Below the pieces are notes generated by a model. It was not told the origin of the DNA, did not search any database, and saw only the letters and a list, made by a program, of their open reading frames with translations. Shown one piece after another: positions 8,898-59,156 of a stretch of 64,000 nt of DNA. The stretch spans positions 64,001 through 128,000 of the forward strand of contig CP045477.1 in assembly GCA_009392915.1 (NCBI GenBank), given 5' to 3'. The stretch is from Candidatus Forterrea multitransposorum CG_2015-17_Forterrea_25_41 (GTDB lineage Archaea > Iainarchaeota > Iainarchaeia > Iainarchaeales > CSSED10-239). The translations under genes and the position numbers were made by a program. Each line of letters begins with the position of its first letter. The first letter of the stretch is position 1.

Positions 8898-9293
8898 ATG
8901 GTTGAATGGATTAAAAAATCAAAAAGAAAAAAAACAGGTGGAATAGATAACTCTGTTAATTTTAAAACAAAAGCATTATCTGATAGAGGTGGATCTTTTG
9001 TTAAAACTGTTGTTGATGATTCTGAAAAGAAATTTAAAGAAAGAACAAGAGGCGGAAATGAAAAATTAAAAATTTCAAAAGCATCTACTGTTTTAGTTTC
9101 AGACAATGGTAAATCTTTTAAAGCAAAAGTTTTAAATGTTGTAGAAAATCATGCAAATAAACAATTTGTAAGACAAAAAGTAATTACAAAAGGTTCAATT
9201 GTTGTAATTGAAAAAGATGGTAAAGAACATAAAGCAAAAGTTACTTCAAGACCAGGACAAACAGGTCAAGTTACTGCTGTTTTAGTAAAATAG
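8898..9293 (+). CDS. rps8e: 30S ribosomal protein S8e
   Basis: N-terminal KRKKTGG motif and overall basic 131-aa protein, typical of S8e. Confidence 0.85.
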   Translation: MVEWIKKSKRKKTGGIDNSVNFKTKALSDRGGSFVKTVVDDSEKKFKERTRGGNEKLKISKASTVLVSDNGKSFKAKVLNVVENHANKQFVRQKVITKGSIVVIEKDGKEHKAKVTSRPGQTGQVTAVLVK

Positions 9294-9303
9294 ATTTTAA
9301 GAT

Positions 9304-9846
9304 ATGTTAACTTTTTTTAAAAAAATTAAAAGAGATTTGAAAACTAAAAAAAAAATAAAAGAATCTCTTTATTTTTTATTATTTTTTATAATTTCTTTTT
9401 CTCTTATTTATTTATTATTATCAAAAACCTTAATCTATAATTTTATAAACTATTTTTATGGTTCTCTTTCAAGTATTATTCTTAATATTTTTTATGGAAT
9501 TAATACTTCTTTTTATTATGATTTTATAGAACAAGTAACTTTTCTAATAATTCCAAGTATAGATTATCCTGTTGCAATTGTTTTCTTATGTACTGGTATT
9601 TTAGAATTTTCTTTAATTGTAAGTGCTATTGTTTCAACTATTGGTTTTTCTTTAAGAAAGAAAATAAAATGGGTATTAATTTCTTCTTTCCTTGTAATTA
9701 TTTTTAATCTTTTAAGAATAACTTTTACAATATTTATAATAGATTATTTTAATTTAGAAATAGCAGATTTTTTCCATGGTTTTTTATTTAGATTATTTTT
9801 AGTAATTATTGTTATTGGTACTTATTATTTTTTCTTAAAATCTTAA
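9304..9846 (+). CDS. small polytopic membrane protein, candidate short archaeosortase/exosortase-family protein
   Basis: 4-5 predicted TM helices. Cys96 in FLCTGILEF and Arg138 in FNLLRITF are spaced 42 residues apart, reminiscent of the essential Cys/Arg pair of archaeosortase ArtA (spacing 41). This is speculative. Confidence 0.35.
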   Translation: MLTFFKKIKRDLKTKKKIKESLYFLLFFIISFSLIYLLLSKTLIYNFINYFYGSLSSIILNIFYGINTSFYYDFIEQVTFLIIPSIDYPVAIVFLCTGILEFSLIVSAIVSTIGFSLRKKIKWVLISSFLVIIFNLLRITFTIFIIDYFNLEIADFFHGFLFRLFLVIIVIGTYYFFLKS

Positions 9847-9850
9847 ATTA

Positions 9851-10162
9851 TTATTTTTTAGGACCTTTCTTAATTTTTGGTTTTCTTTTTTTACAAGCTT
9901 CATTTTGAATAACAATTTCTTTTGTTAATTTATCATTCTTTCTTTGAAGACTTGCAATCTCACATAAAATAATTTCAGCAAATTCTTTATTTCCTTTATT
10001 TGATCTAATCATGTCTTTACAGTATTCTATGTTAATGTTATTAAGTTCAATTTTTTCAGAATTAGAAATTGTACCTACTCTATTTTTTTCTTGCAATTGA
10101 TTTTTTCTTTTTGCAATTGGTGATGATGAATGATTCCATTTTTGATTTAATTCAGTAGTCAT
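9851..10162 (-). CDS. hypothetical basic protein (103 aa)
   Basis: ORF whose start overlaps the upstream gene's stop by 4 nt (ATGA), which suggests an operon with 10159..10551. It has a Lys-rich C-terminus. Confidence 0.45.
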   Translation of the reverse strand: MTTELNQKWNHSSSPIAKRKNQLQEKNRVGTISNSEKIELNNINIEYCKDMIRSNKGNKEFAEIILCEIASLQRKNDKLTKEIVIQNEACKKRKPKIKKGPKK

Positions 10163-10551
10163 TTTTGCATCTCTTCTTTAATGATTTTTTTCACTTGTTC
10201 AATAGTTGTATACTCTAAAGGATTAATATTATCAATTACATATTTCATTTCTTTTAAATCTTCAGCTCTTGCATATCTTTTTGAAAACATCTCAAGATTT
10301 GATTCAATCCCTTTCATTCTGTTTTCAATATCTTTCATTTTTTTAAAAATTTCTTCAATTTTTTCATTAGATGCAAAAGAGCCTTGTGAATCTGAAGTAT
10401 TGGCTGAAGCAATCTTTTTATTTAAAACAAGGATGTTTCTTCCAAGTATCTTTTCATTATGCACAAGATATTTTATCTTTTGTCTTAAAACAAGAAGACT
10501 TGATTGTAAAGCTTTAATATCTTGATACACATTCTGTGATTGATCAACCAT
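10159..10551 (-). CDS. hypothetical coiled-coil protein (130 aa)
   Basis: Heptad-rich sequence predicted to be coiled-coil. No catalytic motif. Confidence 0.5.
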   Translation of the reverse strand: MVDQSQNVYQDIKALQSSLLVLRQKIKYLVHNEKILGRNILVLNKKIASANTSDSQGSFASNEKIEEIFKKMKDIENRMKGIESNLEMFSKRYARAEDLKEMKYVIDNINPLEYTTIEQVKKIIKEEMQK

Positions 10552-10745: not shown

Positions 10746-11102
10746 ATGAATAAAAAAATATTAAATATTTTTGGAGTACTTTCTGTTTTAGTTTTTTTAA
10801 TGTTTATTTCATTAAACTTAAGTGCAGAGAGATTTGATGTTACTGATATTTCTTACTCTTATGTAAGTTATAATTATCCATATTACCCAAATGGTCAATA
10901 TTATAATAGTTACTATAATTATTATGATTATTATATTCCAACAGGTTATGTAAATTCATATACAGGCTATATTAATTATCCTGCTTACTCAAATTATGTT
11001 CCAACTTACTATAACACTTCATATGTAACTTATCCTTCATACTATAACAACTCAATCAGTTATGGAAGTCCAGAGGCATATGTTTCTTTTAGTTGGCAAT
11101 AA
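10746..11102 (+). CDS. secreted Tyr/Asn-rich low-complexity protein
   Basis: N-terminal signal peptide (ILNIFGVLSVLVFLMFISLNLSA). The mature part is ~35% Tyr with YYNxYY repeats. The gene lies directly upstream of a giant surface protein gene. Confidence 0.6.
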   Translation: MNKKILNIFGVLSVLVFLMFISLNLSAERFDVTDISYSYVSYNYPYYPNGQYYNSYYNYYDYYIPTGYVNSYTGYINYPAYSNYVPTYYNTSYVTYPSYYNNSISYGSPEAYVSFSWQ

Positions 11103-11129: not shown

Positions 11130-14100
11130 ATGAACTATAAATATTTTTTTGTATTTTTATTAGTAGTTTTATTTTCATCAATGGTATTTTCATACACAAT
11201 TGGTTTTGATTATGCTGAAGTTAGAACTACAAGTTATCCTAACTATCTTAATTATCAATATGCTCATTACTATGATAATATTGATCTAAGATATGGTGTT
11301 TATGGAAGTGGAATTTCTTCTCCAGTAACAATAATTGTTTCTCCAAAAGTTTATGGAATAACAACTACTGGTCAAAGAGTCTTTGTTCATAATATACAAA
11401 CTCATTCTTTTTCAATGAATCCTTCTTCTTTTTATACTTATAGTTATAATCCAATGTTTTCTTTTGATCCTGCATATCAAAGTTATGAAGTTGTTTTAGA
11501 TCTTCAAAGTTCAGATGGATCTTTTAATAATTCTGTAAGTAGATATGTTTATTCTCAAGGAACAAATCCAAACCCTGGAGGAGATGATCCTACAGGTGAT
11601 GATCCTAATGTAGTTAGTTGTGATGATTTTTATGTTTCAGGAATGGAAGATATTTATTTAGATGAAGATTCAAGAGAATATTATAATCTTTATTTAGTAA
11701 ATTCTGTTGACTTGCCACTTACAATAACTTCAGTTACAGTTTCTCCAAATAATCCTACTAACTTAGAAATTGAAGATATTACTTATCCTTTTACAGTTTC
11801 TGCTCTTCAAACAAGAAGTGCACAAATTGAACTTTTTACAGATACAGTTTCTTCTGATTATTCAAATAGTTTTCAAATAGAAGTTAAAGGTAAATATGAT
11901 AATTCTTTAACTTGTGAAAAAACATATAATGTTAATTATAGAATACTAGATGCTGAACTTGAAAATAATGGTTCTTGTAGTGATATAAGAATTTTAGATG
12001 ATTATTTTACAATGAGTGATAATTCTTCTAAAACTTTTGAAATTGAAGTTTCAAATGCTTCTCAAGATTATTATTTTGAAGTTGATGATATTGATTTAGA
12101 TACTACAAATGATTCAATAATTGAAGCTAGTGTTAGAAACACAATTGATAAAATATATACAGATTCTTCTAAAATTTTAAAAATAAATGTTTCTTCAGAT
12201 GACACTTCTTTTTATAGAACTGAAAAAATTGATTTAGAACTAACAGGTTATTTAAAAAGAGAAAACAGAGAAGATAAAAAATGTAGAATAAGAGAAGATG
12301 TTTCAATAAGAGTTTCTCCAGATTCTTCAACTGGAAATACTTCAAATGAATGTGATGATATAAAAATATATACAAGAGATGTTTTCCAAGATTCTCAAAT
12401 AACAGAAAACTACTCTCTTCAAGAGGGTTTTTATATTTATAATGGAACTAATAAAAAATTTACTGTATCAGGTATTAACTATAAAGACAATACTATGTAT
12501 GCAGATATCTTTTCAAAATCTTTTGATTATACTCTTTATCCTAGATCCTCTAATGCTTTAAATTTTGATATAAGAACAAGTGAAGTTTCAGAAAATAAAC
12601 TTTCAAATGCAGAAATTTCTATTCAAGGATATTTTGAAGGTGGACTTTCTTGTAGTTATTCAGATATAACTTCAAACTTTAATTTAACTATAAGAGAAGA
12701 AAATGATTTTTGTTCAAATGTAGGTATTTATGATGACAGTTTTGTTGAAGGTGAAAATTATTTTACAGTTTATAATAACACTAATAAAGACTTTACTGTA
12801 AATGATATTATTTCTCAAAATTCAGTTAACTCAAATGTAGGTGTGATTGATTCTTCTTTTAAAGTTTTAAAAGATTCACAAAAAACTTTTAGAGTTGGTT
12901 CTTCAGGAAATGGTAGTTTTGAGCTTTTAGCTAAAGGTGTTTTTTCAGATGGCACTTCTTGTGACTATACTCAAACAAGCAGTGGTTATTTCAATAGTGA
13001 TTCTGGTTATGATTTTTCAGATACTTCTTGTGAATTTGAATTTAATTATCCAAATGTAAAATATATCTCTTTAAACGGAGACTCTCTAAATTTTGATTTT
13101 AGAAACTTAACTGGAAAATCTGGTGAGATTAGACTTTCTGCAGTTGGTGCTGTAATTGAAGATCCAATTATTAAGTTTTCTTCATATTCATCTTTTAATA
13201 AAGAAATAGATCTTTTAAATATTAAAAATCCAAAAATGGTTCTTTATACAATTGAAATTTACGGTTGTTCTAAAAAATCATATTTTACAAATCTTTATCC
13301 TTTAGGAAATTCTATTCAAGGAGATGTTTCATTTTTAACATATCCTAGTAATTTAATTTCAACTAAAGATAAATTTATAAGTTCTTTTTCACTTAAAAAC
13401 TCAAGTAGTTTTTCAGAAGATGTTGAAATTAAATTTTCAGGTTTTACAAGTGCATTTAATTTTGTATCTTCTCCTTATCCATTAAACCCAAATACTTTCT
13501 CATCTTCAGATAATGTTTCAACAGTTACAATAAATCCAAACTCTACAAAAAATATTTATTTTGGAGTTGATGTTTTAGAAAATGCAGAATATAAAAAATA
13601 TAATGGATATATTGAAGTTTATAGTAATAATAAATTATTATTTAAAGAGCCTTTATCAATAGATAGATCAATTACTACTAATAATTTATTAGTAAATACT
13701 ATGGTTGAAAAGACATCTGTTAAAAATACTGTTCTTTTAACATTTACTTTTGAAAACAAATTACCTGACCTTACAAGAGAACTTTATTTATCTTTTGAAG
13801 ACGAGAATAGTTTTGAAGTAGATGGTAATAGAAATATATCTGTTGCACCATTAAGTGTACTTGAAAGAAGCTTTACTGTTAAATATAATGAAGGTTCTTT
13901 ATTTAAGTATAATTTAATAGATACAGATAATTCTTCTCTTGCATATTCTGGAGAAGTAGATTTAAAAGAAATTGATAATTCTTCAAATCTTTTATCTGGA
14001 TTTTTTACTCTTTCAGATACAAAAGGATTTATATTTGCAATTGTTCTTATATTACTTATAGCTTTAATTATTTTCTTAATAGTTTATGGAGATAAATCTA

Positions 14101-14273
14101 GAGCTAAAAGAAAACAAGAAACTAAATCAGTTTTAGAAACACAAGAAAAAATAAAAGAAGAAATTAGAAAAGATAATTTTTCTAATATTACTAAGTCTGA
14201 GATTATAATAGGAAATAAGCCTATTATAAAGCCTGCAGAACCAAGACAGATTACTTTAGGTGAGCTTGATTAA
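11130..14273 (+). CDS. giant surface protein (1047 aa) with signal peptide, C-terminal TM anchor and cytoplasmic tail
   Basis: Signal peptide, then Ser/Thr/Asn-rich beta-type repeats with paired Cys. Near the C-terminus there is a TM segment FIFAIVLILLIALIIFLIVY followed by a basic/charged ~60-aa tail. Confidence 0.8.
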   Translation: MNYKYFFVFLLVVLFSSMVFSYTIGFDYAEVRTTSYPNYLNYQYAHYYDNIDLRYGVYGSGISSPVTIIVSPKVYGITTTGQRVFVHNIQTHSFSMNPSSFYTYSYNPMFSFDPAYQSYEVVLDLQSSDGSFNNSVSRYVYSQGTNPNPGGDDPTGDDPNVVSCDDFYVSGMEDIYLDEDSREYYNLYLVNSVDLPLTITSVTVSPNNPTNLEIEDITYPFTVSALQTRSAQIELFTDTVSSDYSNSFQIEVKGKYDNSLTCEKTYNVNYRILDAELENNGSCSDIRILDDYFTMSDNSSKTFEIEVSNASQDYYFEVDDIDLDTTNDSIIEASVRNTIDKIYTDSSKILKINVSSDDTSFYRTEKIDLELTGYLKRENREDKKCRIREDVSIRVSPDSSTGNTSNECDDIKIYTRDVFQDSQITENYSLQEGFYIYNGTNKKFTVSGINYKDNTMYADIFSKSFDYTLYPRSSNALNFDIRTSEVSENKLSNAEISIQGYFEGGLSCSYSDITSNFNLTIREENDFCSNVGIYDDSFVEGENYFTVYNNTNKDFTVNDIISQNSVNSNVGVIDSSFKVLKDSQKTFRVGSSGNGSFELLAKGVFSDGTSCDYTQTSSGYFNSDSGYDFSDTSCEFEFNYPNVKYISLNGDSLNFDFRNLTGKSGEIRLSAVGAVIEDPIIKFSSYSSFNKEIDLLNIKNPKMVLYTIEIYGCSKKSYFTNLYPLGNSIQGDVSFLTYPSNLISTKDKFISSFSLKNSSSFSEDVEIKFSGFTSAFNFVSSPYPLNPNTFSSSDNVSTVTINPNSTKNIYFGVDVLENAEYKKYNGYIEVYSNNKLLFKEPLSIDRSITTNNLLVNTMVEKTSVKNTVLLTFTFENKLPDLTRELYLSFEDENSFEVDGNRNISVAPLSVLERSFTVKYNEGSLFKYNLIDTDNSSLAYSGEVDLKEIDNSSNLLSGFFTLSDTKGFIFAIVLILLIALIIFLIVYGDKSRAKRKQETKSVLETQEKIKEEIRKDNFSNITKSEIIIGNKPIIKPAEPRQITLGELD

Positions 14274-34396: not shown

Positions 34397-36484
34397 ATGC
34401 AGTTAAAGAAACTAACTTTAGTTTTATTATTTTTATTTATTTTTTCCATACCAGTTTTTTCTTCTTCTATAACTCTTTATGTTTCCTCTCCTTTTTCCTC
34501 TTCATCTTCAAATTTTAGTATTTCTCCTTCACTTTCTTTTGACAAGTTATCTTTAGTTTCAGAAGATAATTTATCTTTATTAAGAGAGCAAAATATTATT
34601 GTTAAAGAAGAAATTATTAAAGAAAAAGAATCTTCTTTAGAAGATAATTCTCTGTTAGAAGAAATAAATTCTCCAAATCATATTTATGAAACTTATTTTC
34701 AAGATTCTGTAATGATTGGAGATGTTTATTTTCCAGAAGGTATAATTGATTCTTCTCAAGTAAGAGAAAGAAGAAATATTAACTCTCAGTCTACAGTTGA
34801 TAATATTTGGGGTACCACTCCATTAACTGGAGAATATCATATTCCTGTTTTTTTAGTTGATTTTTCAGATGTTCCACATACTCTTTCTAAAGAAGTTTTT
34901 GAAGAACAATTTAATTCTCCTCTTTACTTGGACGGTAATGGTACAAGTGTAAGTCAGTATTACAAGAAACAATCCTATGGTGAACTTGATATTACTTTTG
35001 ATGTTTATGATTGGAGAGAAATGCCTGAAACTTATGAATATTATAGTACAAGATTAGGTGTTTTTGGAGCTCAAACAATAGATCTTTTTGGAACTGGTCC
35101 AAATGCAATTGATTTAACTCAATATGATTCTGATAATGATGGTAGGATAGATGGTTTTGTAATTGTTCACGCTGGTTTTTCTTTACAGAACGCTGGTACT
35201 GGTCATATTAAGACATCTACTTTATTAATGTATTCTGATGAAATTTTAACCATTCAAGGTTTGCATTATGGTAATATAGCTGTTACTTCTGAGAGATATC
35301 CTAGTTGTTCTTCTGGTTTTAATGAAAATTTAATTCCATATCCAGATGATTGTAGAATTGGTGTTTTAGATCAAACACATGAGTTTGGTCATATTTTAGG
35401 TCTTCCAGACTTTTATGGTATTGATCCAAATACTGGTGGTCAATCTCCTGGTCTTCAAAACCTAACTATGATGATGATGTATGATGACATTCCTCAAAAA
35501 CCAATTAATTTAGATGCTTGGGCAAGATATTTTTTAGGTTGGATACAACCAACTGTAATTGAAGAGGGCATGGAAGGTGTTTATCCAGTTTATTCAATTG
35601 ACACCAATCCAGATGGTGCTTTTATTTTACAAGATCTAACTGAGATGGATGAACGTGAATTTTTTATAATTGAAAATAGATTTATGCAAAACTCCCCTTA
35701 TAATCAAGATACTTTTCTTTTAAACACTTCTCAACTAAATTGGGATTATTTAAATGGTCATTTTGGTGGAATTGCAGTTTATCATGTTGATGAGCAATAC
35801 ATTGAAGATAATTATCCAACTAACAGTATCATGTGGGATCCTGATGGAGATTTTTATGATGATACTATAGGGCATCCTGGAATCGTTTTTGAAGAAAATA
35901 TAAAATTTTCAGAAAATAATTGGGATTATTCATTAGGAGATTTATATTCTAGTGAACGTAATGCTGGTTTTGGAGATAATACTTTTGGTAATTTTGATAG
36001 ATACCAAAGATTTTATCCAGAATATAATATGTTATGGGATTATCACAATAAAGCCTATAATGGTAATTTAACTGGTGTTACTGTTGGCACTTTAAGTGGT
36101 AGTGGATCTATAGTTTATGCTTATCTTCAAAGTTATCAAGAAACTTTTAATGCTTTAATCTCTTCTCCAAAAAATAACAGATGGTATAAGTATACTAATA
36201 ATTTAAATTTCATTTCAAGTTATTATAATAATTTAGGAGATGTAAGTTGTGTTTGGGAAGATTCCAGTAATAATATTCTATCTCAAGATTGTGAATTTTC
36301 TGCAACTCCAGAAGATTTAGGTTTACCAATCAGTGAATGTTCTGAGAAAATCACTCTAACTTTAGAAATAACAGATCAAGAAACTGGTGATACAATTATT
36401 GATACTGTTGATATAAAGATTTATGAAACCATAAGAGATATTTGTGAGACTGCTCATAACAACACCCAAGCAGCCACAAAATAA
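34397..36484 (+). CDS. secreted zinc metalloprotease (HExxH; M6/InhA-like motif HEFGHILGLPDFY)
   Basis: Signal peptide, then a Ser-rich linker, then a catalytic zincin motif HEFGH-x3-LPDFY. 695 aa. Confidence 0.55.
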   Translation: MQLKKLTLVLLFLFIFSIPVFSSSITLYVSSPFSSSSSNFSISPSLSFDKLSLVSEDNLSLLREQNIIVKEEIIKEKESSLEDNSLLEEINSPNHIYETYFQDSVMIGDVYFPEGIIDSSQVRERRNINSQSTVDNIWGTTPLTGEYHIPVFLVDFSDVPHTLSKEVFEEQFNSPLYLDGNGTSVSQYYKKQSYGELDITFDVYDWREMPETYEYYSTRLGVFGAQTIDLFGTGPNAIDLTQYDSDNDGRIDGFVIVHAGFSLQNAGTGHIKTSTLLMYSDEILTIQGLHYGNIAVTSERYPSCSSGFNENLIPYPDDCRIGVLDQTHEFGHILGLPDFYGIDPNTGGQSPGLQNLTMMMMYDDIPQKPINLDAWARYFLGWIQPTVIEEGMEGVYPVYSIDTNPDGAFILQDLTEMDEREFFIIENRFMQNSPYNQDTFLLNTSQLNWDYLNGHFGGIAVYHVDEQYIEDNYPTNSIMWDPDGDFYDDTIGHPGIVFEENIKFSENNWDYSLGDLYSSERNAGFGDNTFGNFDRYQRFYPEYNMLWDYHNKAYNGNLTGVTVGTLSGSGSIVYAYLQSYQETFNALISSPKNNRWYKYTNNLNFISSYYNNLGDVSCVWEDSSNNILSQDCEFSATPEDLGLPISECSEKITLTLEITDQETGDTIIDTVDIKIYETIRDICETAHNNTQAATK

Positions 36485-36561
36485 AAAAATAAGTAAACCA
36501 TTTATATACTTTATGTTATATAATTTATAATATAATTATTTAAAATAAAAAATAAATTAAG

Positions 36562-39531
36562 GTGAATATTTTGATAAAAATAAAAAAAGGACAAATTTCT
36601 TTAGAAGCAATTATTATAATTGGTGTTATTGTTTTAGCAAGTATTATATTTGCGACATTCTATATTTCTAATGTTAATAAAAAAATAGATACTGCAAGTA
36701 ATCTAGATCCTAATTTTTCTGGAATGATTGGATCTGATGAAATGGGGTCAACTGATCCTATAACTATTGGTGAAGAACCAGGTCCAGGCCCAGGTCCAGG
36801 AGGAAGTACTTGTGGTGATAATATTATTGAAGGTACAGAAGATTGTGATGGTACTAATTTAGGTGGTGCTACATGTGAGTCTGAAGGTCAAGGTACAGGA
36901 GATTTATCTTGTAATTCAAATTGTACTTTTGATTATTCTGGTTGTTCTAGTCCAACAGCAAGTTATACAATAACTTCAAGTCATGGATCAAATGGAACTA
37001 TTTTTCCTTTAGGAGCTGTAACAGTTTTAGAAGGGGCAAGTAAAAAATTTAATTTGTATCCAAATGCAGGTTATGATGTAGATACTGTTTCAATTGATGG
37101 TGCAGAAGTTTCTCTTAGTGAAAGAAGAAGTTATACTTTTAATAATGTTACTTCCGGTCATACTATTCATGTAACTTTTAAACCTTATGCTTCAAATGAA
37201 CATATTATTTTTGCAAGTAGTGGTTCTCATGGAACCATAGATCCTGCAAGAAATAATACAGTTATAGAAGGAGATGATATTACTTTTACATTTAATCCAG
37301 ATACAGGATATCGTGTAGGTAATGTCTATATTGATGATACTACTGTTGGTTCAGAACAAATAGAGATTATTAATGATTTTTCTTCAAAAGATTCTGAAAA
37401 TAATAATTTATATTTTTCAGAAGAAGATGTTTTATATTTTGCATCTGATACAGGGACAGGTACTTCTTCAAATTTAGTTTATACTTTTGAAGATGTAGAT
37501 GATAGTCATACTATTCATGTAACTTTTATATCAAACACAACTCCTACATATACTTTAGAATATATTGCTGGAGCAAATGGTAGTATTTCTGGTCCAAATC
37601 CTCAAACTGTAAGTCAAGGAGAAGATGGTACAGAAGTATGTGCTGTTGCAGATGAAGGTTATGAATTTTTTAAATGGGATGATGATTATTATTCTGAATG
37701 TAGAACTGAAACAAATGTAACAAGTAATCAAACATATACTGTTATCTTTAATGAAAATGCAGGTCAAACAATGGCTATGAATTTAGAAGGTGTTGAATCA
37801 ACTCCAATAAATCAAAACTTTGATGTTGTTGTTAATACTTCTGAAACTCCAGGAACTGTAAGTTATGGTTTAGTTGCAGGATTATTAATTTATAATGATG
37901 TTGCAGGAGATTATTTGCCAACAAACAATTGTTCTTATAACGGAACTTTTGCTTCAAATCATACACTTGAAACAAATCAATCTCCAGGTATTGAAAATTA
38001 TACTTTTACATGTAATACTTCTGGAAACTATAAATTTACATTTACAGCAACAGATACAACTAACTCAACAAATGATGTTTCAAGAGATAAATTAATTACT
38101 GTTGTAAATAACCAAACAGCAGCACCAACATTTTCAATTGATGGAGGTACTTATTTTAATGATCAAACATTAACTTTAAGTTCAACAACTCCTAGTGCAA
38201 CTATAAAATACACAACTAATGGTACTATCCCAACTTGTACTACAGGAACAACTTATTCTCCTGCAAGTCCAATTCAAATTAATCAAATTTTAACAGTAAA
38301 AGCAATTGCTTGTAAATCTGGATATATTGATAGTCAAGTTGTTACAGAAATTTATAATTTAAAAGTTGGATATCCAGAACCAAGTGTTAATCCTGGTGTA
38401 TATTCTCAAGCACAGACAATTACTCTTTCAACAGAAACAATTGGTGCAACTTTGTATTATTCAACAGATGGTTCTGATGCTTTTGATGGAAGTGTTTACG
38501 TTCCAGGAGAAGAAATTATAATTTCAAAACCATATACTGAATTAAGAGTGGCAGGAGAAAAATCAAATTATAATGATAGTTCAGAATTTGATGAATATTA
38601 TTATATAAATGGTTATGAATCTCCAACTCCAAGTATGGTTTTTACAAATTATTATGGAGATGCATATAATCTTGTAGGTGCTGCAAATTTAACTCACTCA
38701 GATGTTTTCTTTGAAGATGAAGAAAATAATTTAGTAAGATTTGTTAATCCTAAATTAAATGGAGATTATTTTAACGGAAGTAATGCTTCAGGAGCTACAT
38801 TAATAGATTGTGAGGCATTTTGTTCTGAAAAGTATCTTGGAGGAACTTGTGATTCTTTTGATAAAACTAATTATTCTGGAAATGCAAATAATTTGATATA
38901 TTATAGAAATATGATTCCTGGTTCTGGTGGTGCAAATGATGTTTTCCCTTACACAATTGGGGGTGAGTTATCTAATTCTCCTCAATGGGCTTATGCTTCT
39001 GGAGCTATTGGTGGACCAGATAGAGTAGGATACTTCACTTGTGATTTTTCACACACCTCCAGTCCAGAAGATGCAGACTTTGGATTTATTGATTTATATA
39101 CTGAAGATTTATTATTAAATTATGGTGATCCATTTGATGGTACAGAATTCTATTATGATTCTTCAAGAGTAACTTTTGATAATGTTACAAAGTCTGGTTC
39201 AGAATATACTTATTCAGGTTTAAATGTTGTAGGTAATTTTGACACACCAGGCGCAACTGCTCCAACAGGAACAGTTTATATACTTTCAGATGATTTTTCA
39301 CAAGCTTGTGATGCTGTATGTGATGCTTTATATCAAGAAAGTTCTTGTGAAAATTATGATACAACAGATGTATATACTGCTAAAGGAGTTTCATATAATT
39401 ATTATCCTCCTGAATATGCAACAATATTTAATCCTAATTTAAGTACAGGTTATTATTGGACATCTGGAAGTCAACTTTTCTATGATGTTTGGTCAGAAGC
39501 TGTTCTTTCAGAAGTTACTTGTTCAAAGTAA
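36562..39531 (+). CDS. 989-aa adhesin-like protein with type IV pilin-like (class III) N-terminal signal peptide
   Basis: N-terminus KKGQISLEAIIIIGVIVLASIIF matches the class III/prepilin signal (cleavage after G, hydrophobic helix). This is followed by a GPGPGPGG linker, a Cys-rich module, three GYxF..W Listeria-Bacteroides-type repeat domains and a chitobiase/hexosaminidase C-terminal-like beta domain. Confidence 0.7.
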   Translation: MNILIKIKKGQISLEAIIIIGVIVLASIIFATFYISNVNKKIDTASNLDPNFSGMIGSDEMGSTDPITIGEEPGPGPGPGGSTCGDNIIEGTEDCDGTNLGGATCESEGQGTGDLSCNSNCTFDYSGCSSPTASYTITSSHGSNGTIFPLGAVTVLEGASKKFNLYPNAGYDVDTVSIDGAEVSLSERRSYTFNNVTSGHTIHVTFKPYASNEHIIFASSGSHGTIDPARNNTVIEGDDITFTFNPDTGYRVGNVYIDDTTVGSEQIEIINDFSSKDSENNNLYFSEEDVLYFASDTGTGTSSNLVYTFEDVDDSHTIHVTFISNTTPTYTLEYIAGANGSISGPNPQTVSQGEDGTEVCAVADEGYEFFKWDDDYYSECRTETNVTSNQTYTVIFNENAGQTMAMNLEGVESTPINQNFDVVVNTSETPGTVSYGLVAGLLIYNDVAGDYLPTNNCSYNGTFASNHTLETNQSPGIENYTFTCNTSGNYKFTFTATDTTNSTNDVSRDKLITVVNNQTAAPTFSIDGGTYFNDQTLTLSSTTPSATIKYTTNGTIPTCTTGTTYSPASPIQINQILTVKAIACKSGYIDSQVVTEIYNLKVGYPEPSVNPGVYSQAQTITLSTETIGATLYYSTDGSDAFDGSVYVPGEEIIISKPYTELRVAGEKSNYNDSSEFDEYYYINGYESPTPSMVFTNYYGDAYNLVGAANLTHSDVFFEDEENNLVRFVNPKLNGDYFNGSNASGATLIDCEAFCSEKYLGGTCDSFDKTNYSGNANNLIYYRNMIPGSGGANDVFPYTIGGELSNSPQWAYASGAIGGPDRVGYFTCDFSHTSSPEDADFGFIDLYTEDLLLNYGDPFDGTEFYYDSSRVTFDNVTKSGSEYTYSGLNVVGNFDTPGATAPTGTVYILSDDFSQACDAVCDALYQESSCENYDTTDVYTAKGVSYNYYPPEYATIFNPNLSTGYYWTSGSQLFYDVWSEAVLSEVTCSK

Positions 39532-46375: not shown

Positions 46376-46816
46376 TTGTCTAATTTTGGTGTTAAAAAAA
46401 TCTCTTTTAAATATTTTATAAAACATACTTTTATTGTTTTTTTTATTTTGTTATTTATAAGTATGTTTATTAATCTAGTATTTATTTTATTTGGTTTTAC
46501 AGATTTAGGTCTTGTTACTGAAAAAATAAAAACTCTTTCTCCATTTTTTATAGTTTATTTATTAGTTATTAGAGTTTTTTTAGAAGAATGGTTTTTTAGA
46601 GGTTTTTTAGTTTATAAAACAGGTATTTTATTTTCTGCATTTCTATTTGCTGCAGGACATTATGGGTATGGGTCTATTGTTGAAGTAGTGGGTGCTTTTA
46701 TATTAGGTTTAGTTTTAGCTTTCTATTATAAAAAAATAAATAATATTTATCCTCTTTATGCTGCGCATTTTCTATATAACTTAATGGTTATTTTAGTTAC
46801 TTTTTTTACAATTTAA
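46376..46816 (+). CDS. CPBP-family intramembrane metalloprotease (CAAX protease/Abi-like)
   Basis: Motif 1 EEWFFRGFL (EExxxR) and motif 2 FAAGHYGYG (FxxxH) on TM helices. Confidence 0.6.
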   Translation: MSNFGVKKISFKYFIKHTFIVFFILLFISMFINLVFILFGFTDLGLVTEKIKTLSPFFIVYLLVIRVFLEEWFFRGFLVYKTGILFSAFLFAAGHYGYGSIVEVVGAFILGLVLAFYYKKINNIYPLYAAHFLYNLMVILVTFFTI

Positions 46817-47897: not shown

Positions 47898-49103
47898 TTG
47901 ATTAATATGTTTTCAAAAAAAATTATTTTAGTATCTGTTTTATTTTTACTTACATCTTTATTTTCGGGGTTGATTTTCTCTGAAAGATATATAGATAGTT
48001 CTTATGTTCAAGTTATTGCTCAAGAAGTAAGTCCTGAACCAGTAGAGCCTGGTCAAGATTTTTTACTAAAAGTTAGAGTTCATAATTTTGGAACAGTGGA
48101 TGCTAAAAATGTAAAAATTAATCTTGATTTAAATTATCCTTTTTATTTAAAAAATACAAGTGAGTCTTATATTGACTTTAATTCGATTTGTTCTAATTGT
48201 TCTGCAGAAAATACATATTATTTTACAGTTTCAAGTTCTGCAGTTTCAGGGATATATCCAATACATTTTAATATATCTGAAATAAATAATGAAACTGTTT
48301 CTTTTAAACCTCAAATAATAGATATTTCCATATTAGGTAAACCTGATTTAGTTTTAGAAACCATAAAAGTAGATCAAAATATTTCTGCCGGAGATATATT
48401 TAATATTAAATTTTTATTAAGGAATATAGGTACTGGGAATTCTAGAAATATAAAAATAATTCCTAATTCTGATGATTTTATGCTTATTGGGACAAATACT
48501 AAATGGTTTGAAGAATTAGGTCCCAATAAAGAAATTATTTTTGATTTAAATTTTATTTCAAACAAAGATTTAATTTCAAATAGTTATATTTTTCCTATAG
48601 ATCTTGAATTTTTAGGAGAAAAACAAAATTTTTATACCTCTTCATATAATATTGGAATTAATCTTTTAGGAAAAGCAGATTTATCTTTACAAAATTTAAA
48701 AATTACTCCTTTAAACCCTTCTTTAAAAGATTTAATTAATTTTGAAGGAATTATTGAAAATATAGGAAATGGAAAAGCAAATAATGTTTCTTTAGAATTA
48801 TTTGTTTCAAATGATGAGAATTATAAATATTATATTGGTCAATTAAATAAAGATGATGATGCTCCTTTTTATTTTAATGAAATTAAATTTAATTCTGTTG
48901 GAAATAATAAAGTAAATTTGATTGTAAATTATGATGATGATTACGGTAATTATAAAATAGAAATTCCTTTAAATCAAAATATAAATAAATCTAATAATTT
49001 ATCTTTATTTTTTATAGTTTTATTTTTATTTTTGGTTTTATTTTTTAGTTTGTATTTATTAAAAAATAATAAACACAATAAAAATAAAAAAATAAAGAAT
49101 TGA
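47898..49103 (+). CDS. CARDB-repeat (COG1361-like) cell-surface protein with C-terminal TM anchor
   Basis: Signal peptide and three CARDB-like repeats (e.g. VSPEPVEPGQDFLLKVRVHNFGTVDAKNVKINL). The C-terminus has a TM helix plus basic tail KNNKHNKNKKIKN. Confidence 0.7.
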   Translation: MINMFSKKIILVSVLFLLTSLFSGLIFSERYIDSSYVQVIAQEVSPEPVEPGQDFLLKVRVHNFGTVDAKNVKINLDLNYPFYLKNTSESYIDFNSICSNCSAENTYYFTVSSSAVSGIYPIHFNISEINNETVSFKPQIIDISILGKPDLVLETIKVDQNISAGDIFNIKFLLRNIGTGNSRNIKIIPNSDDFMLIGTNTKWFEELGPNKEIIFDLNFISNKDLISNSYIFPIDLEFLGEKQNFYTSSYNIGINLLGKADLSLQNLKITPLNPSLKDLINFEGIIENIGNGKANNVSLELFVSNDENYKYYIGQLNKDDDAPFYFNEIKFNSVGNNKVNLIVNYDDDYGNYKIEIPLNQNINKSNNLSLFFIVLFLFLVLFFSLYLLKNNKHNKNKKIKN

Positions 49104-54380: not shown

Positions 54381-57300
54381 ATGAAAAATAAGATACTAAT
54401 AATTTTTTTATTTACAATTTTACTTTCAACTTTTATTTTTTCAGATCCTGTTGTAAAGATAAATGATAATTTAACAACATATACAAACAGTGATTCTGAA
54501 AACTTCTATGTTGAAGTAAGTAATACTGGAGATAATTGTGAAGTTGAATCTGATTTTATAAGTATTAATTTAAGTTCAGATGCAGCAAGTTCTTTTCCAT
54601 ATTTAATATACTGTAATCTTGAAAGAAATTATAGTGGTTATTTTTCAGTAGATTTTTCAACAAACACACCAACACCTCCAATACCAAATGTTTTAGTTAA
54701 TAATGAAGATACTGTTATTGCAGACTATAATGGGTTTACTGCTAATTTAGTAGTTGACACAATAAATACTATAACAGGAACTTTTGATTTAAATTCTGTT
54801 GATTCAGTTGTAAATAATTACTATAAAGGAGATGTTGAAGTTACTTCTTTAAGTTCTTTTTCAGATGCACATTCTGGTTTAAAAGAATATTACATTTATA
54901 TTGTTGAAGTTGATTCAGTAAATGACTATAGAGATGATTATTATAAGAGATTAATTGTAGATGTTAATGAAACTTCTATTGATTTAGGTACATCTACAAC
55001 TGTTTCTGATGGAAATTATTTTGTTTTAGTTGAAGCTTTAGATTATGCTGAAAATCTTGCAATACCTTCTCAAGTAATTTTAAATAAAAAAAATATGTAT
55101 GTTGATAATACAGCACCTCAAGTAACTTCTTTTAGTTTAGGAAGTTTTTCAGAAGGTACAACTTATTATGTTCCTTCAACAACTACTACTTTGACTTTAT
55201 TAATTGAAGATGATGGTGTAGGGGTAAGGAATGAACCTCTATATACACAAATAGATAGAGATAGTGTAAAGTTAGCAGATTATAATTCTATATTAGGCGG
55301 TTTCTTTTTTGATTTTACAACAGTTGATTATGATATTGATGGTTCATATGAGCTTGCAGCAACAGATCTTTTAGGTAATTTAAATGAAAAAACATTTTCA
55401 ATAATGATAGATGAAACTTCTCCAACAACTCCAACAATTTCAACAGTTACAAGAGCTGTAGATAATAATGTTACAATTTCAAATTGGGGTACTTCAACTG
55501 ATTCTGGAAGTGGTTTAAAAGAATACAAAGTCTATAGGTCAACTTCTTCTTTTACAGAAGTTTCAAATCAAGATTTAATTTGTACAGTTTCTGCAGCTGC
55601 TTCAAAAACTTGTCTTGATTCAACTTCAAAATCAGATGATACAAGATATTATTATGGTGTTACTGCAGTTGATAATGCAGGAAATAATAGTCCAGTTGTA
55701 ACTGCAAGCATAAAAACAGGTCCTGAACTTGATATTTATATTGATTTAGAAGATTCTGATTTTGTAAATACTGTTACTCCAGAGATAACTTTAGAGTATG
55801 GTTCTGATGTTAATGCTGTTAGATTTAGTTGTAATGCTTCAACTTTTACATCATGGGTTGAAGTTTCGGGAACTTCTGAGGTTTATGAAAGTTTTAATGT
55901 AACTTCTGGAAATGGATGTAATACAGATCAAGGAGATAAAATAATTTATGTTGAAGCAAGAAGTGAAGACGATCCTTATCTTATTACTAGAGAATCTTTT
56001 GAGTTTGAACTTGATTCAAAAGCACCAACAATACCTAGTAACATAGAAGTTTTAGAACAAGCAAATGGTTCTTTAAATATTTCTTGGACAAGCTCAACAG
56101 ATGTAAATGGTAGTGGTCTTGAAGAATACAGGATTTATTATTCAGAATCTGAGTCAGTTTCTAAATCCTCACAATATATGACTTCTTCAGATGAAGAGTA
56201 TATTTTTAATCCTAATGAAGATAAAACATTTTATTTTAAAATATCTGCAATTGATGAAGCATTAAATGAATCTGATCTTTCATCTATTGCTTCTGGAACT
56301 GCAAAAAGATTTGGACCTTCTTTTACTTTTAATGCAAGCCCAAAAAATTTAATTGATGATGTTTATTATTTAAAAAAAGGAAATGTTTTATTTACTATTA
56401 CAAGTAGTGAAGAATTAAAACAAACACCTATTATTAGACTTAAAATTGGTAATTCACCTTATAAATCAATTTCTGCAATTTATAGTAATTTAATTACAAC
56501 TTTTAATTATTCTTTAGAAGAAAGTGGAGATTCAATTTTAGAAATTACAGGTACAAATAATAATAATGAAACAACAACTGATACTTTTAATTTTATAGTA
56601 GATGCAGAAGTTCCAACTTTTACTGCTGACTATAATTTCTTTGAAGATACTAAATTATATGAATTTAAAATAAGTGATTTTTCAGATGATGTTTTCAGAG
56701 TTCAATATTTATTTAATAATGTTGAAGAAGTTTGTTTTATTGAAGATTCAAATAACAATTATCTTTGTTCACTTGATTCTACTCTTTATAAAGATGGTAA
56801 TCATAAAATGTATGTTTTAGTTTATGATAGAGCATTAAATTATGAAACTGAAATTATTTCTTTTGAAATAGATAATGTTGATGAAGCTTTAATTTTAAAA
56901 GAAAATTTAGTTGCTGAAATTAATACAAATATTTTTACAATTGAAGATAGAATTTCTTTCCTTCAAGCAATCTCTTTAGAAGTTTCTCAAGATGTTTTAG
57001 ATAAATTTTCTGAAGCTAAAGAAAAAGTTGTTCTTGCAAAATCTCTAGAAGATTCAAATAATTTTTCAGAAGCTGTAAATACTTATACTTCTGTAAATAA
57101 TTCTTTACTTGAGATATTAGAAGTTTTACCTACAGAAAATGTTTTAAAAACAAAAACTATTGAAATTGATCTTTTAGATAATTCTTTTGATCTTAATACA
57201 GTTATTTTGGATCAAAATATATTAACTGATAATTTGTCTTTTTATGATGTTAATAATCAAGACCTAAATTTTATATCAGTTTCAAGAGAATTTAGTGTTT

Positions 57301-57971: not shown

Positions 57972-59156
57972 ATGATTGAAGGTATAGATAAAAGAATAAT
58001 TATTGTTGGTGGTGGACCAACAGGACTTTATTGTGCTTATCTTTTAAAAAAATTAAATCCAAATATAATTATTACAGTCATAGAAGAACATAAAACTTGT
58101 GGTTCTCCAATGTGTTGTAGTGGTTTAATTGATGTTTCTGGTTATAATAGATTAAAGCTTAAAAATTTTTTAGTTTTAAAAGACTTTTTAATAAATAAAA
58201 TATATGGATCTCACATCTATGGTCCTTTAGAAGCAAAAATAGATGTTCTTTCAAAAGATGTTAAAGCATATGTTATTGATAGAGAAAAATTTGATAATAG
58301 TATAAAAGAATTAGCCTTAAGTTTTGATGTTGAACTTTTATCTGGAAAAAGAGTTGTTTCTATTGAAAATAATTTTGTAACTTTTAAAGATTTAGAAACT
58401 GATTCTGAAGAACAATTAAGATACGATTATTTAGTTGGAGCAGATGGTCCTAATTCTTTGGTGAGAAAAACTTTTTTCCCTGAAATTAAAAACTCAGAGT
58501 TTGTGCATACTTATCAAGTAACAGTTGAAGGAAATTTTGATAATAGAAATGTTTCTGTTTATTTAGGTGATTTTGCAAAAGGTTTATTTGCATGGATTGT
58601 TCCTGAATCATCAAGTGTTGCAAAAATTGGTTTAGGTGTTTCTTTAGGTAAAAATCCTAAAGATGCTTTTTTAAAATTTAAAGAAAAATATAAATTGACT
58701 TATCAAAGAGAGATTTATGAATGTTCAGGTATATTGCCTATCTCTAAACCATTAAAAAATTTAGTGCATGACAATGTTTTACTTGTTGGAGATGCTGCTT
58801 GTTTTGTAAAGTCTACAACTGGAGGAGGAGTGAATTTTGGACTTCTTTCTTCTGAAATGGCATCAAAAGCAATTAATGAAAGAATTAAAGAGTATAAGTC
58901 TCTTAAAAACTATAATACTTTATTAAAAAAATACCGTAAAGAATTAAATACTCATTATAAGATTAGGAATTATTTATTGTCTAAAAATTTTGTAGAACAA
59001 GATAAATTGCTTTTAAAGATTAAAGATTCAAATATTCATAAAATTTTAGAAGAATATGGCAACATGGATTATCCTAGTGAATTTTTATCAAAGATTTTTA
59101 CAAATAAAAATAGTTTTTTATTAATTCCTGAATTTTTTAAATTTATTATTAAATAG
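57972..59156 (+). CDS. geranylgeranyl reductase family protein (archaeal lipid saturation, FAD-dependent)
   Basis: FAD-binding GxGxxG (IIIVGGGPTGLYCAYLL) and the second FAD motif LLVGDAACFVKSTTGGG. 394 aa. Confidence 0.7.
   Translation: MIEGIDKRIIIVGGGPTGLYCAYLLKKLNPNIIITVIEEHKTCGSPMCCSGLIDVSGYNRLKLKNFLVLKDFLINKIYGSHIYGPLEAKIDVLSKDVKAYVIDREKFDNSIKELALSFDVELLSGKRVVSIENNFVTFKDLETDSEEQLRYDYLVGADGPNSLVRKTFFPEIKNSEFVHTYQVTVEGNFDNRNVSVYLGDFAKGLFAWIVPESSSVAKIGLGVSLGKNPKDAFLKFKEKYKLTYQREIYECSGILPISKPLKNLVHDNVLLVGDAACFVKSTTGGGVNFGLLSSEMASKAINERIKEYKSLKNYNTLLKKYRKELNTHYKIRNYLLSKNFVEQDKLLLKIKDSNIHKILEEYGNMDYPSEFLSKIFTNKNSFLLIPEFFKFIIK

Follow-up and report, generated by a model that had tools for sequence, protein, structure and literature searches.

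A 64-kb window (the whole stretch of DNA analysed here, about 25% G+C) of Candidatus Forterrea multitransposorum, a member of the Iainarchaeota (DPANN archaea), encodes at 9304-9846 a small membrane protein of 180 amino acids (aa), for which a role as archaeosortase had been predicted from the sequence. The gene follows that of ribosomal protein S8e and precedes, by 1284 bp, the gene of a giant 1047-aa protein with a Sec signal peptide, which is probably a major surface (S-layer-like) protein. The giant gene is directly preceded, on the same strand, by a gene for a secreted Tyr-rich protein, and between the sortase gene and this pair there are two genes on the opposite strand: an open reading frame (ORF) of 103 aa and a gene for a 130-aa coiled-coil protein. 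Archaeal ribosomal protein genes are found on either side of the locus. The original prediction had placed candidate enzyme and candidate substrate 1.3 kb apart and had pointed to the Tyr-rich neighbour (118 aa, 24% Tyr); both statements agree with our measurements. We find that the 180-aa protein (hereafter the mini-sortase) is almost certainly a member of the exosortase/archaeosortase superfamily, and that the giant protein carries a conserved C-terminal signal of the kind such enzymes recognise. The coordinates of these features are collected in Table 1.

The mini-sortase matches TIGR04178, the NCBIfam signature of the exosortase/archaeosortase family covering a conserved three-helix region, with 44.9 bits (cut-off 23; E-value 1.1e-11): its residues 91-177 are aligned to positions 2-91 of the 97 positions of the profile. 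No profile was matched by the reversed sequence, a control that keeps both composition and hydrophobicity, and the profile searches with the protein itself returned no unrelated family. Precomputed Pfam matches exist for an identical protein and for many relatives; NCBI lists the identical protein as 'exosortase/archaeosortase family protein [archaeon]', and its relatives bear the same kind of name at NCBI and JGI. The assignment of the enzyme to the family is therefore already public annotation (from the NCBI pipeline), and the short-form exosortase/archaeosortase of the original prediction is confirmed by the signature. The named subfamily models, however, all stay below their cut-offs (ArtA to ArtH, pacearchaeosortase, heimdallarchaeosortase and XrtG were searched): the best scores are 13.6 bits for heimdallarchaeosortase (cut-off 130), 12.6 bits for ArtD (cut-off 125) and 9.4 bits for XrtG (cut-off 102.75), and the models for ArtA, B, C, E, F and H and for pacearchaeosortase give no match at an E-value of 10 or below. 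No second sortase paralogue was found in the 64-kb window.

Small size is not unusual among the relatives of this protein, as in 1.84 billion representative proteins a profile search retrieved 452 clusters (E-value of 1e-3 or below), nearly all of 160-220 aa. Among these relatives we also observed a 1102-aa predicted protein (P0092, on a 19-kb ENA contig), the first 181 residues of which are a mini-archaeosortase domain, joined to a long stretch rich in Ala, Gly and Ser; this may reflect a true fusion or an artefact of gene calling.

The translation of the ORF has Cys96 in the context VFLCTGI (this is the only cysteine of the protein) and Arg138 in the context NLLRITF, 42 residues apart, as had been claimed. 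The spacing with which it had been compared, 41 residues between Cys173 and Arg214 of ArtA, is that of published critical residues (PMC9263693). By itself such a spacing is weak evidence, but here it goes beyond chance because of the TIGR04178 match, the empty reversed control and the conservation of the residues concerned. We used two sets of homologues: a close set of 26 proteins (down to 44% identity to the mini-sortase) and a divergent set, an alignment of 117 representatives (16-49% identity to the query, with a mean column identity of 20%), every one of which matches TIGR04178. All 26 close homologues keep C96, R138 and H158, plus P89, T97, G98, E101 and N135. In the divergent set N135, R138 and H158 are each found in 117 out of 117 proteins and C96 in 116, so that neither of the two residues originally singled out fails this comparison; position 163 is Arg in 104 proteins, Lys in 11 and Gln in two. 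His158, which the original prediction did not mention, completes a Cys-Arg-His triad, and Cys/Arg/His is the triad suspected to be catalytic in the family (Haft 2023, 10.1101/2023.06.07.544157). In Haloferax ArtA, the residues Cys173, Arg214 and Arg253 are experimentally critical (PMC9263693); through the family signature Cys96 would correspond to Cys173, and Arg163 is, at a guess, the equivalent of Arg253. We therefore predict from these sequence comparisons that the mini-sortase is very probably an active enzyme with a Cys96/Arg138/His158 site, in which Asn135 and Arg163 probably assist.

Hydropathy gives four strong segments (approximately residues 21-40, 93-113, 124-148 and 154-178) and a moderate one (43-62), and an AlphaFold2 model (26 homologues as input; mean predicted local distance difference test score (pLDDT) 87.5, predicted TM-score (pTM) 0.77) has five long helices plus a small beta element at 69-92; the earlier description of the protein as having 4-5 transmembrane (TM) helices is thus a fair one. 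No solved structure was found for comparison with the protein. The Lys-rich N-terminus is probably cytoplasmic, and the loop L117-RKKIK-W123 (RKKIK at 118-122) should be on the cytoplasmic side. Because the positive-inside rule puts both of these in the cytoplasm, the triad is predicted to lie toward the outer face of the membrane: Cys96 and His158 would each be at the outer end of their helix (93-113 and 154-178, respectively), and Arg138 in the outer half of its own (124-148).

Searches of Pfam, NCBIfam and PDB sequences gave no significant match for the giant protein, which NCBI lists as a 'hypothetical protein'. Its N-terminal 140 residues are also Tyr-rich (13%), and its AlphaFold2 model (pLDDT 69.5) has about eight tandem beta-sandwich domains (residues ∼160-945) followed by a TM helix; searching the PDB with Foldseek returned only generic Ig/MG/ASH-like domain chains, with TM-scores of 0.08-0.15. 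Shortly before the helix is the motif S956-G-F-F-T-L961, the proposed sorting signal, which is the best-conserved 6-mer within the C-terminal 100 residues of the orthologue alignment. The consensus across giant orthologues is L-[TS]-[GA]-F-[FL]-[ST]-[LF]-x-N, and it holds down to 22% overall identity. A strict pattern, [ST][GA][FL][FL]x[LF], is found in 20 out of 22 orthologues, including the one with 22% overall identity (P0196); of the remaining two, one starts the motif with Ala (AGFLTL) and the other is not assessable. The motif is separated from the helix by a spacer of four residues in the window and of 2-8 polar residues in the orthologues (0 in one); their TM helices have 16-24 residues and are followed by a Lys/Arg cluster. 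About half of the orthologues stop 3-17 residues past the helix (e.g. one that ends in SPISAFFTLRNTGFILLGLVVLVVLVIIFRKK followed by the stop). Judged by sequence, such a protein end, with motif, helix and basic cluster, has the form of a textbook tripartite sortase-type signal. We observed it on the giant protein wherever sortase and giant are both visible at a locus, and even a looser form of the motif is absent from all other ORFs among 119,312 six-frame ORF residues of the window and the related loci. None of the curated NCBIfam CTERM models (PGF-, PEF-, PIP-, IPTL-, Heimdall-, Loki- and PACE-CTERM) reaches its cut-off on the giant C-terminus: the best scores are 15.4 for Heimdall-CTERM (cut-off 24), 13.6 for IPTL-CTERM (cut-off 20.5) and 13.4 for PEF-CTERM (cut-off 23), and these weak matches align to the TM and basic part, not to the motif.

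The gene order was compared across 20 related loci (species-representative genomes, sortase identity 46-93%), all from metagenome-assembled genomes named Candidatus Iainarchaeum, Candidatus Diapherotrites or 'archaeon'; more distant relatives of the mini-sortase are P0042, from archaeon GW2011_AR10, and others labelled Micrarchaeota. The S8e gene is followed by the sortase gene in 20 out of 20 loci, and these two genes are probably co-transcribed, as the start codon of the sortase lies only 10 nucleotides (nt) after the S8e stop. The order sortase, coiled-coil ORF, giant is found in 18 out of 20 loci, which are all those that extend far enough. The coiled-coil protein is conserved more than the sortase and is always between the sortase and the giant gene, but has no family match in Pfam and NCBIfam searches. 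The downstream neighbour of the giant gene differs between loci: the rpL3 operon follows in the window, in L003-L012 and in a distant, higher-GC locus (L024), an M6 peptidase gene in both L013 and L019, and genes for class-III-signal proteins in L014, L017, L018 and L020. That the sortase-giant pair is stable through these changes of the downstream flank points, modestly, to a functional linkage. The Tyr-rich gene and the giant gene are probably in one operon; in L024, too, a Tyr-rich homologue or analogue (1035-1613, 192 aa) is directly upstream of the giant, and the two proteins are probably functional partners in the envelope.

Table 1. Features of the mini-sortase locus (positions are those of the 64-kb window)
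Feature	Position	Strand	Remarks
Ribosomal protein S8e gene	8898..9293	+	PF01201 on identical locus; stop 10 nt before sortase start
Short-form archaeosortase-family protein (mini-sortase)	9304..9846	+	ATG start; 180 aa; 4-5 membrane helices
Cys96 codon (LCTG motif), proposed nucleophile	9589..9591	+	26/26 close, 116/117 divergent homologues
Asn135-Arg138 codons (N-L-L-R), Arg138 proposed catalytic	9706..9717	+	N135 and R138 117/117
His158-Arg163 codons (H-G-F-L-F-R), His158 proposed third triad residue	9775..9792	+	H158 117/117
130-aa coiled-coil protein	10159..10551	-	MVDQSQNVYQDIKALQSS...NINPLEYTT; 60-71% identity in every related locus
Secreted Tyr-rich protein	10746..11102	+	118 aa; 24% Tyr (31% in mature part); 27 nt upstream of giant
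Giant probable major surface (S-layer-like) protein, proposed substrate	11130..14273	+	1047 aa; Sec signal peptide; Tyr-rich N-terminal region
Signature motif S956-G-F-F-T-L961	13995..14012	+	Proposed sorting signal
TM helix G966-G987, then basic cluster K989-S-R-A-K-R-K995	14025..14114	+	Spacer 4, TM 22 residues
Rest of cytoplasmic tail (giant residues 996-1047)	14115..14270	+	Ends R-Q-I-T-L-G-E-L-D

The reading we favour, and consider reasonably probable, is that of an active short-form sortase with the giant protein 1.3 kb downstream as its most likely substrate. The giant protein would leave the cytoplasm through Sec and stay anchored in the membrane through its C-terminal helix; the mini-sortase, as a putative intramembrane cysteine protease or transpeptidase with active-site residues predicted in the outer half of three consecutive helices, would then recognise L-[TS]-[GA]-F-[FL]-[ST]-[LF] just outside the helix and cleave there. 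By analogy with Haloferax ArtA, the new C-terminus might be transferred to a membrane lipid. As to its central step, we think the giant protein is probably the substrate of the neighbouring sortase, with real room for doubt, and several observations weigh against it. The whole region (enolase, L1, L10, L12, Hef, ERCC4, CGI-121 and S8e) is syntenic across the related genomes, and the adjacency of sortase and giant may for this reason be no more than inherited gene order. L024 has a motif-bearing giant and no sortase within 1.6 kb upstream (the upstream gene there is RtcB; the genes for the Tyr-rich and the giant protein are together with the rpL3 operon). Distant mini-sortases (P0042, of the AR10 type, P0040 and P0050) adjoin type IV pilus-like ATPase and membrane genes (T2SSE/T2SSF), and neither a giant homologue nor a tripartite signal was found among their visible neighbours. 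The motifs of the PGF-, PEP- and GlyGly-CTERM signals abut the helix (10.1101/2023.06.07.544157), whereas a polar spacer of the kind described above intervenes in the giant proteins. On the enzyme side, the Pfam profile of the family (PF09721, Exosortase_EpsH) is matched with 21.1 bits (E-value 2.2e-4), which is under its gathering (GA) cut-off of 25.7, and over profile positions 103-245 of 254 only, the N-terminal helices of the long forms being absent.

The C-terminal tail of the giant protein calls for the same caution. Orthologues of the window's clade extend 50-70 residues past the helix, whereas the more distant ones end 3-17 residues past it, and a long tail after the signal is atypical for a sortase-type signal. 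Near the end of the tail a motif, [KR][QE][IV][TS][LF]x[EDQ][LV][DE], is found in 10 out of 11 of the long-tail sequences listed, and in the window clade only; its conservation suggests that the tail has a function and that the helix may be retained, which also speaks against cleavage. Yet one substrate that ArtA is known to process has its tripartite signal at an internal position (PMC6098224), and the oddity of the tail thus cuts both ways: there is the ArtA precedent of an internal signal on one side and a conserved, apparently used tail on the other.

The alternative that deserves most attention is that the mini-sortase is a genuine archaeosortase acting on other proteins, encoded elsewhere in the 0.66-0.84 Mb genome, while the giant protein is not its substrate and stays anchored by its TM helix; the juxtamembrane GFF motif would then be structural, as an interfacial aromatic belt or a stalk. 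The blanket synteny, with an adjacency perhaps due to vertical inheritance, the conserved [KR]Q[IV]TLxELD tail as a functional C-terminal part in the window clade, the motif-bearing giant of L024 without an adjacent sortase and the other neighbours of the distant mini-sortases all agree with this, and our view of the genome spans 64 kb. But motif, TM helix and basic cluster are kept at 22% identity and form the protein end in about half of the orthologues, the motif or an alternative shared signal occurs in none of the other ORFs of the window and the 20 loci, and the sortase-giant linkage outlasts the rearrangement of the downstream flank; we regard this alternative as rather unlikely, though not negligible. 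An alternative we consider improbable is that the mini-sortase serves a type IV pilus-like or class-III-signal-peptide machinery instead of the giant, in the manner of ArtD, whose systems are linked in NCBIfam to class III signal peptide proteins. Here the T2SSE/T2SSF genes next to P0042, P0040 and P0050 are accompanied by pilin-like ORFs, the class-III-signal proteins of L014, L017, L018 and L020 follow the giant gene, and in the window itself ORF 36562 has a class III signal peptide (PF04021, at 23.5 bits slightly under the cut-off of 23.7) and weakly matches TIGR04205, a family named ArtD/PIP-CTERM system-associated in NCBIfam. Against this, neither 36562 nor the M6 peptidase at 34397 has a C-terminal TM helix or basic signal, the ArtD model gives only 12.6 bits (cut-off 125), and the class-III-signal and M6 genes of the window are 25 kb from the sortase. 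That the mini-sortase is an inactive or repurposed remnant of the exosortase fold (e.g. a scaffold or a transporter-like membrane protein), with a profile match reflecting the fold only, seems more improbable still: about 100 N-terminal positions of the Pfam EpsH profile are missing, no subfamily model matches and there is no solved structure to compare with, but the triad and N135 are essentially invariant among the 117 representatives at 20% mean column identity, as expected of an active enzyme, and recognised subfamilies include short forms of 150-200 aa (by the profile lengths of ArtD, XrtG and heimdallarchaeosortase).

Going beyond the favoured pairing of mini-sortase and giant, we tentatively suggest, as a possibility with somewhat less than even support, an undescribed archaeosortase subfamily specific to Iainarchaeota, co-transcribed with S8e and dedicated to one probable S-layer protein through a 'TGFF-CTERM' of its own. 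In the window clade this signal would be internal, and cleavage would release a membrane fragment with a functional [KR]Q[IV]TLxELD tail; such a fragment might, for example, couple envelope assembly to a cytoplasmic partner. The pairing of the subfamily with a TGFF-type signal, and the internal position of the signal in the window clade, appear to be undescribed in the libraries searched, and it is plausible that the pairing of subfamily and signal is new.

The original prediction had listed three C-terminally anchored surface proteins as possible substrates (11130, 47898 and 54381). These are also the only secreted proteins of the window that have a C-terminal TM helix, but the giant protein at 11130 alone is supported as a substrate; the other two lack the motif. 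The protein at 47898 belongs to the widespread COG1361/CARDB 'S-layer family' and has a different C-terminal motif (KPTNN), and nothing ties it to the sortase; its C-terminal end of KPTNN, TM helix and basic residues is kept even in distant lineages (Woesearchaeota, Methanolobus, Methanomethylovorans and Altiarchaeia), and downstream of the protein are an FtsX permease (49115) and then an ABC ATPase (50318). The 1192-aa surface protein at 54381 has no GF motif and has a 75-residue tail after the helix; a single relative, 92% identical, was retrieved in a metagenome scan. The Tyr-rich protein was rejected as well, being without a C-terminal TM helix or sorting signal.

Some other genes in the window and in the related loci are worth recording. 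A 146-aa Rce1-like/CPBP intramembrane protease (46376-46816, + strand; PF02517, E-value 1.9e-12) precedes a PadR regulator (47262) and the COG1361/CARDB protein at 47898. CPBP proteases are the other enzyme class tied to C-terminal sorting signals, the myxosortases (10.1101/2023.06.07.544157), and by analogy this one could be the processing enzyme for 47898. Directly after the surface protein at 54381 there is a geranylgeranyl-reductase-like flavin adenine dinucleotide (FAD) protein (57972-59156, + strand; GGR_cat, FAD_binding_3). The stretch 34397-39531 (+ strand) encodes a 695-aa metallopeptidase of the M6 family and a protein of 989 aa with a class III signal peptide (CHB_HEX_C and Flg_new_2 domains); in L013, L014 and L017-L020 their homologues come right after the giant gene, and it seems that the ribosomal protein supercluster of the window (14.5-33 kb) divides what is a single surface-protein gene cluster in those genomes. 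In L004, a bAvd-like gene and a reverse transcriptase (RVT_1) are found at 446-2600, just upstream of CGI-121 and S8e, and look like a diversity-generating retroelement cassette. The distant mini-archaeosortases of L026, L027 and L028 (AR10-type and Diapherotrites/Micrarchaeota) are consistently located beside T2SSE/T2SSF genes, and the one in L027 is directly followed by a 2829-aa protein.

DPANN archaea are almost all uncultured, and how their envelopes are built and anchored is poorly known. If the pairing proposed here is true, it provides a specific, testable enzyme and substrate for a probable major surface protein of Iainarchaeota, and a model of the new sorting signal would improve annotation where the giant protein is now 'hypothetical'. 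It would also be a natural case of an archaeosortase signal with a conserved cytoplasmic tail behind it. The understanding of the exosortase/archaeosortase family itself is unchanged, the enzyme being already recognised by the NCBI annotation pipeline.

Among known systems, ArtA of Haloferax volcanii (HVO_0915) with its PGF-CTERM substrates (e.g. the S-layer glycoprotein) is one of the two closest parallels: both enzymes are polytopic membrane proteins with the TIGR04178 signature and nearly the same Cys/Arg spacing (42 here, 41 in ArtA), the proposed substrate is likewise a large surface protein with a motif, a TM helix and a basic cluster, and both motifs are centred on G-F. The differences are that ArtA is longer than the 180-aa, 4-5-helix enzyme of the window, that the ArtA model (TIGR04125) fails to match the latter, that the signal here is [TS][GA]F[FL][ST][LF] plus a polar spacer whereas PGF abuts the helix, and that the hosts are a DPANN archaeon and a euryarchaeon, lipid attachment being proposed for the former only by analogy. 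The other is pacearchaeosortase (NF033505) with PACE-CTERM (NF033506), where NCBI curators have likewise matched a DPANN subfamily to a single putative S-layer protein; but the lineage here is Iainarchaeota, the mini-sortase gives no NF033505 match at an E-value of 10 or below, and the giant C-terminus scores 8.1 bits on NF033506 (cut-off 110). As for the short-form subfamilies ArtD (TIGR04175), ArtE (TIGR04124), heimdallarchaeosortase (NF045528) and XrtG (TIGR03110), the mini-sortase scores far below their cut-offs and the cognate PIP-, IPTL- and Heimdall-CTERM models stay under cut-off on the giant C-terminus, yet they share with the enzyme the signature region and a similar size (profile lengths of 150-199), and short-form subfamilies are the weak best subfamily matches of the 180-aa protein and its relatives.

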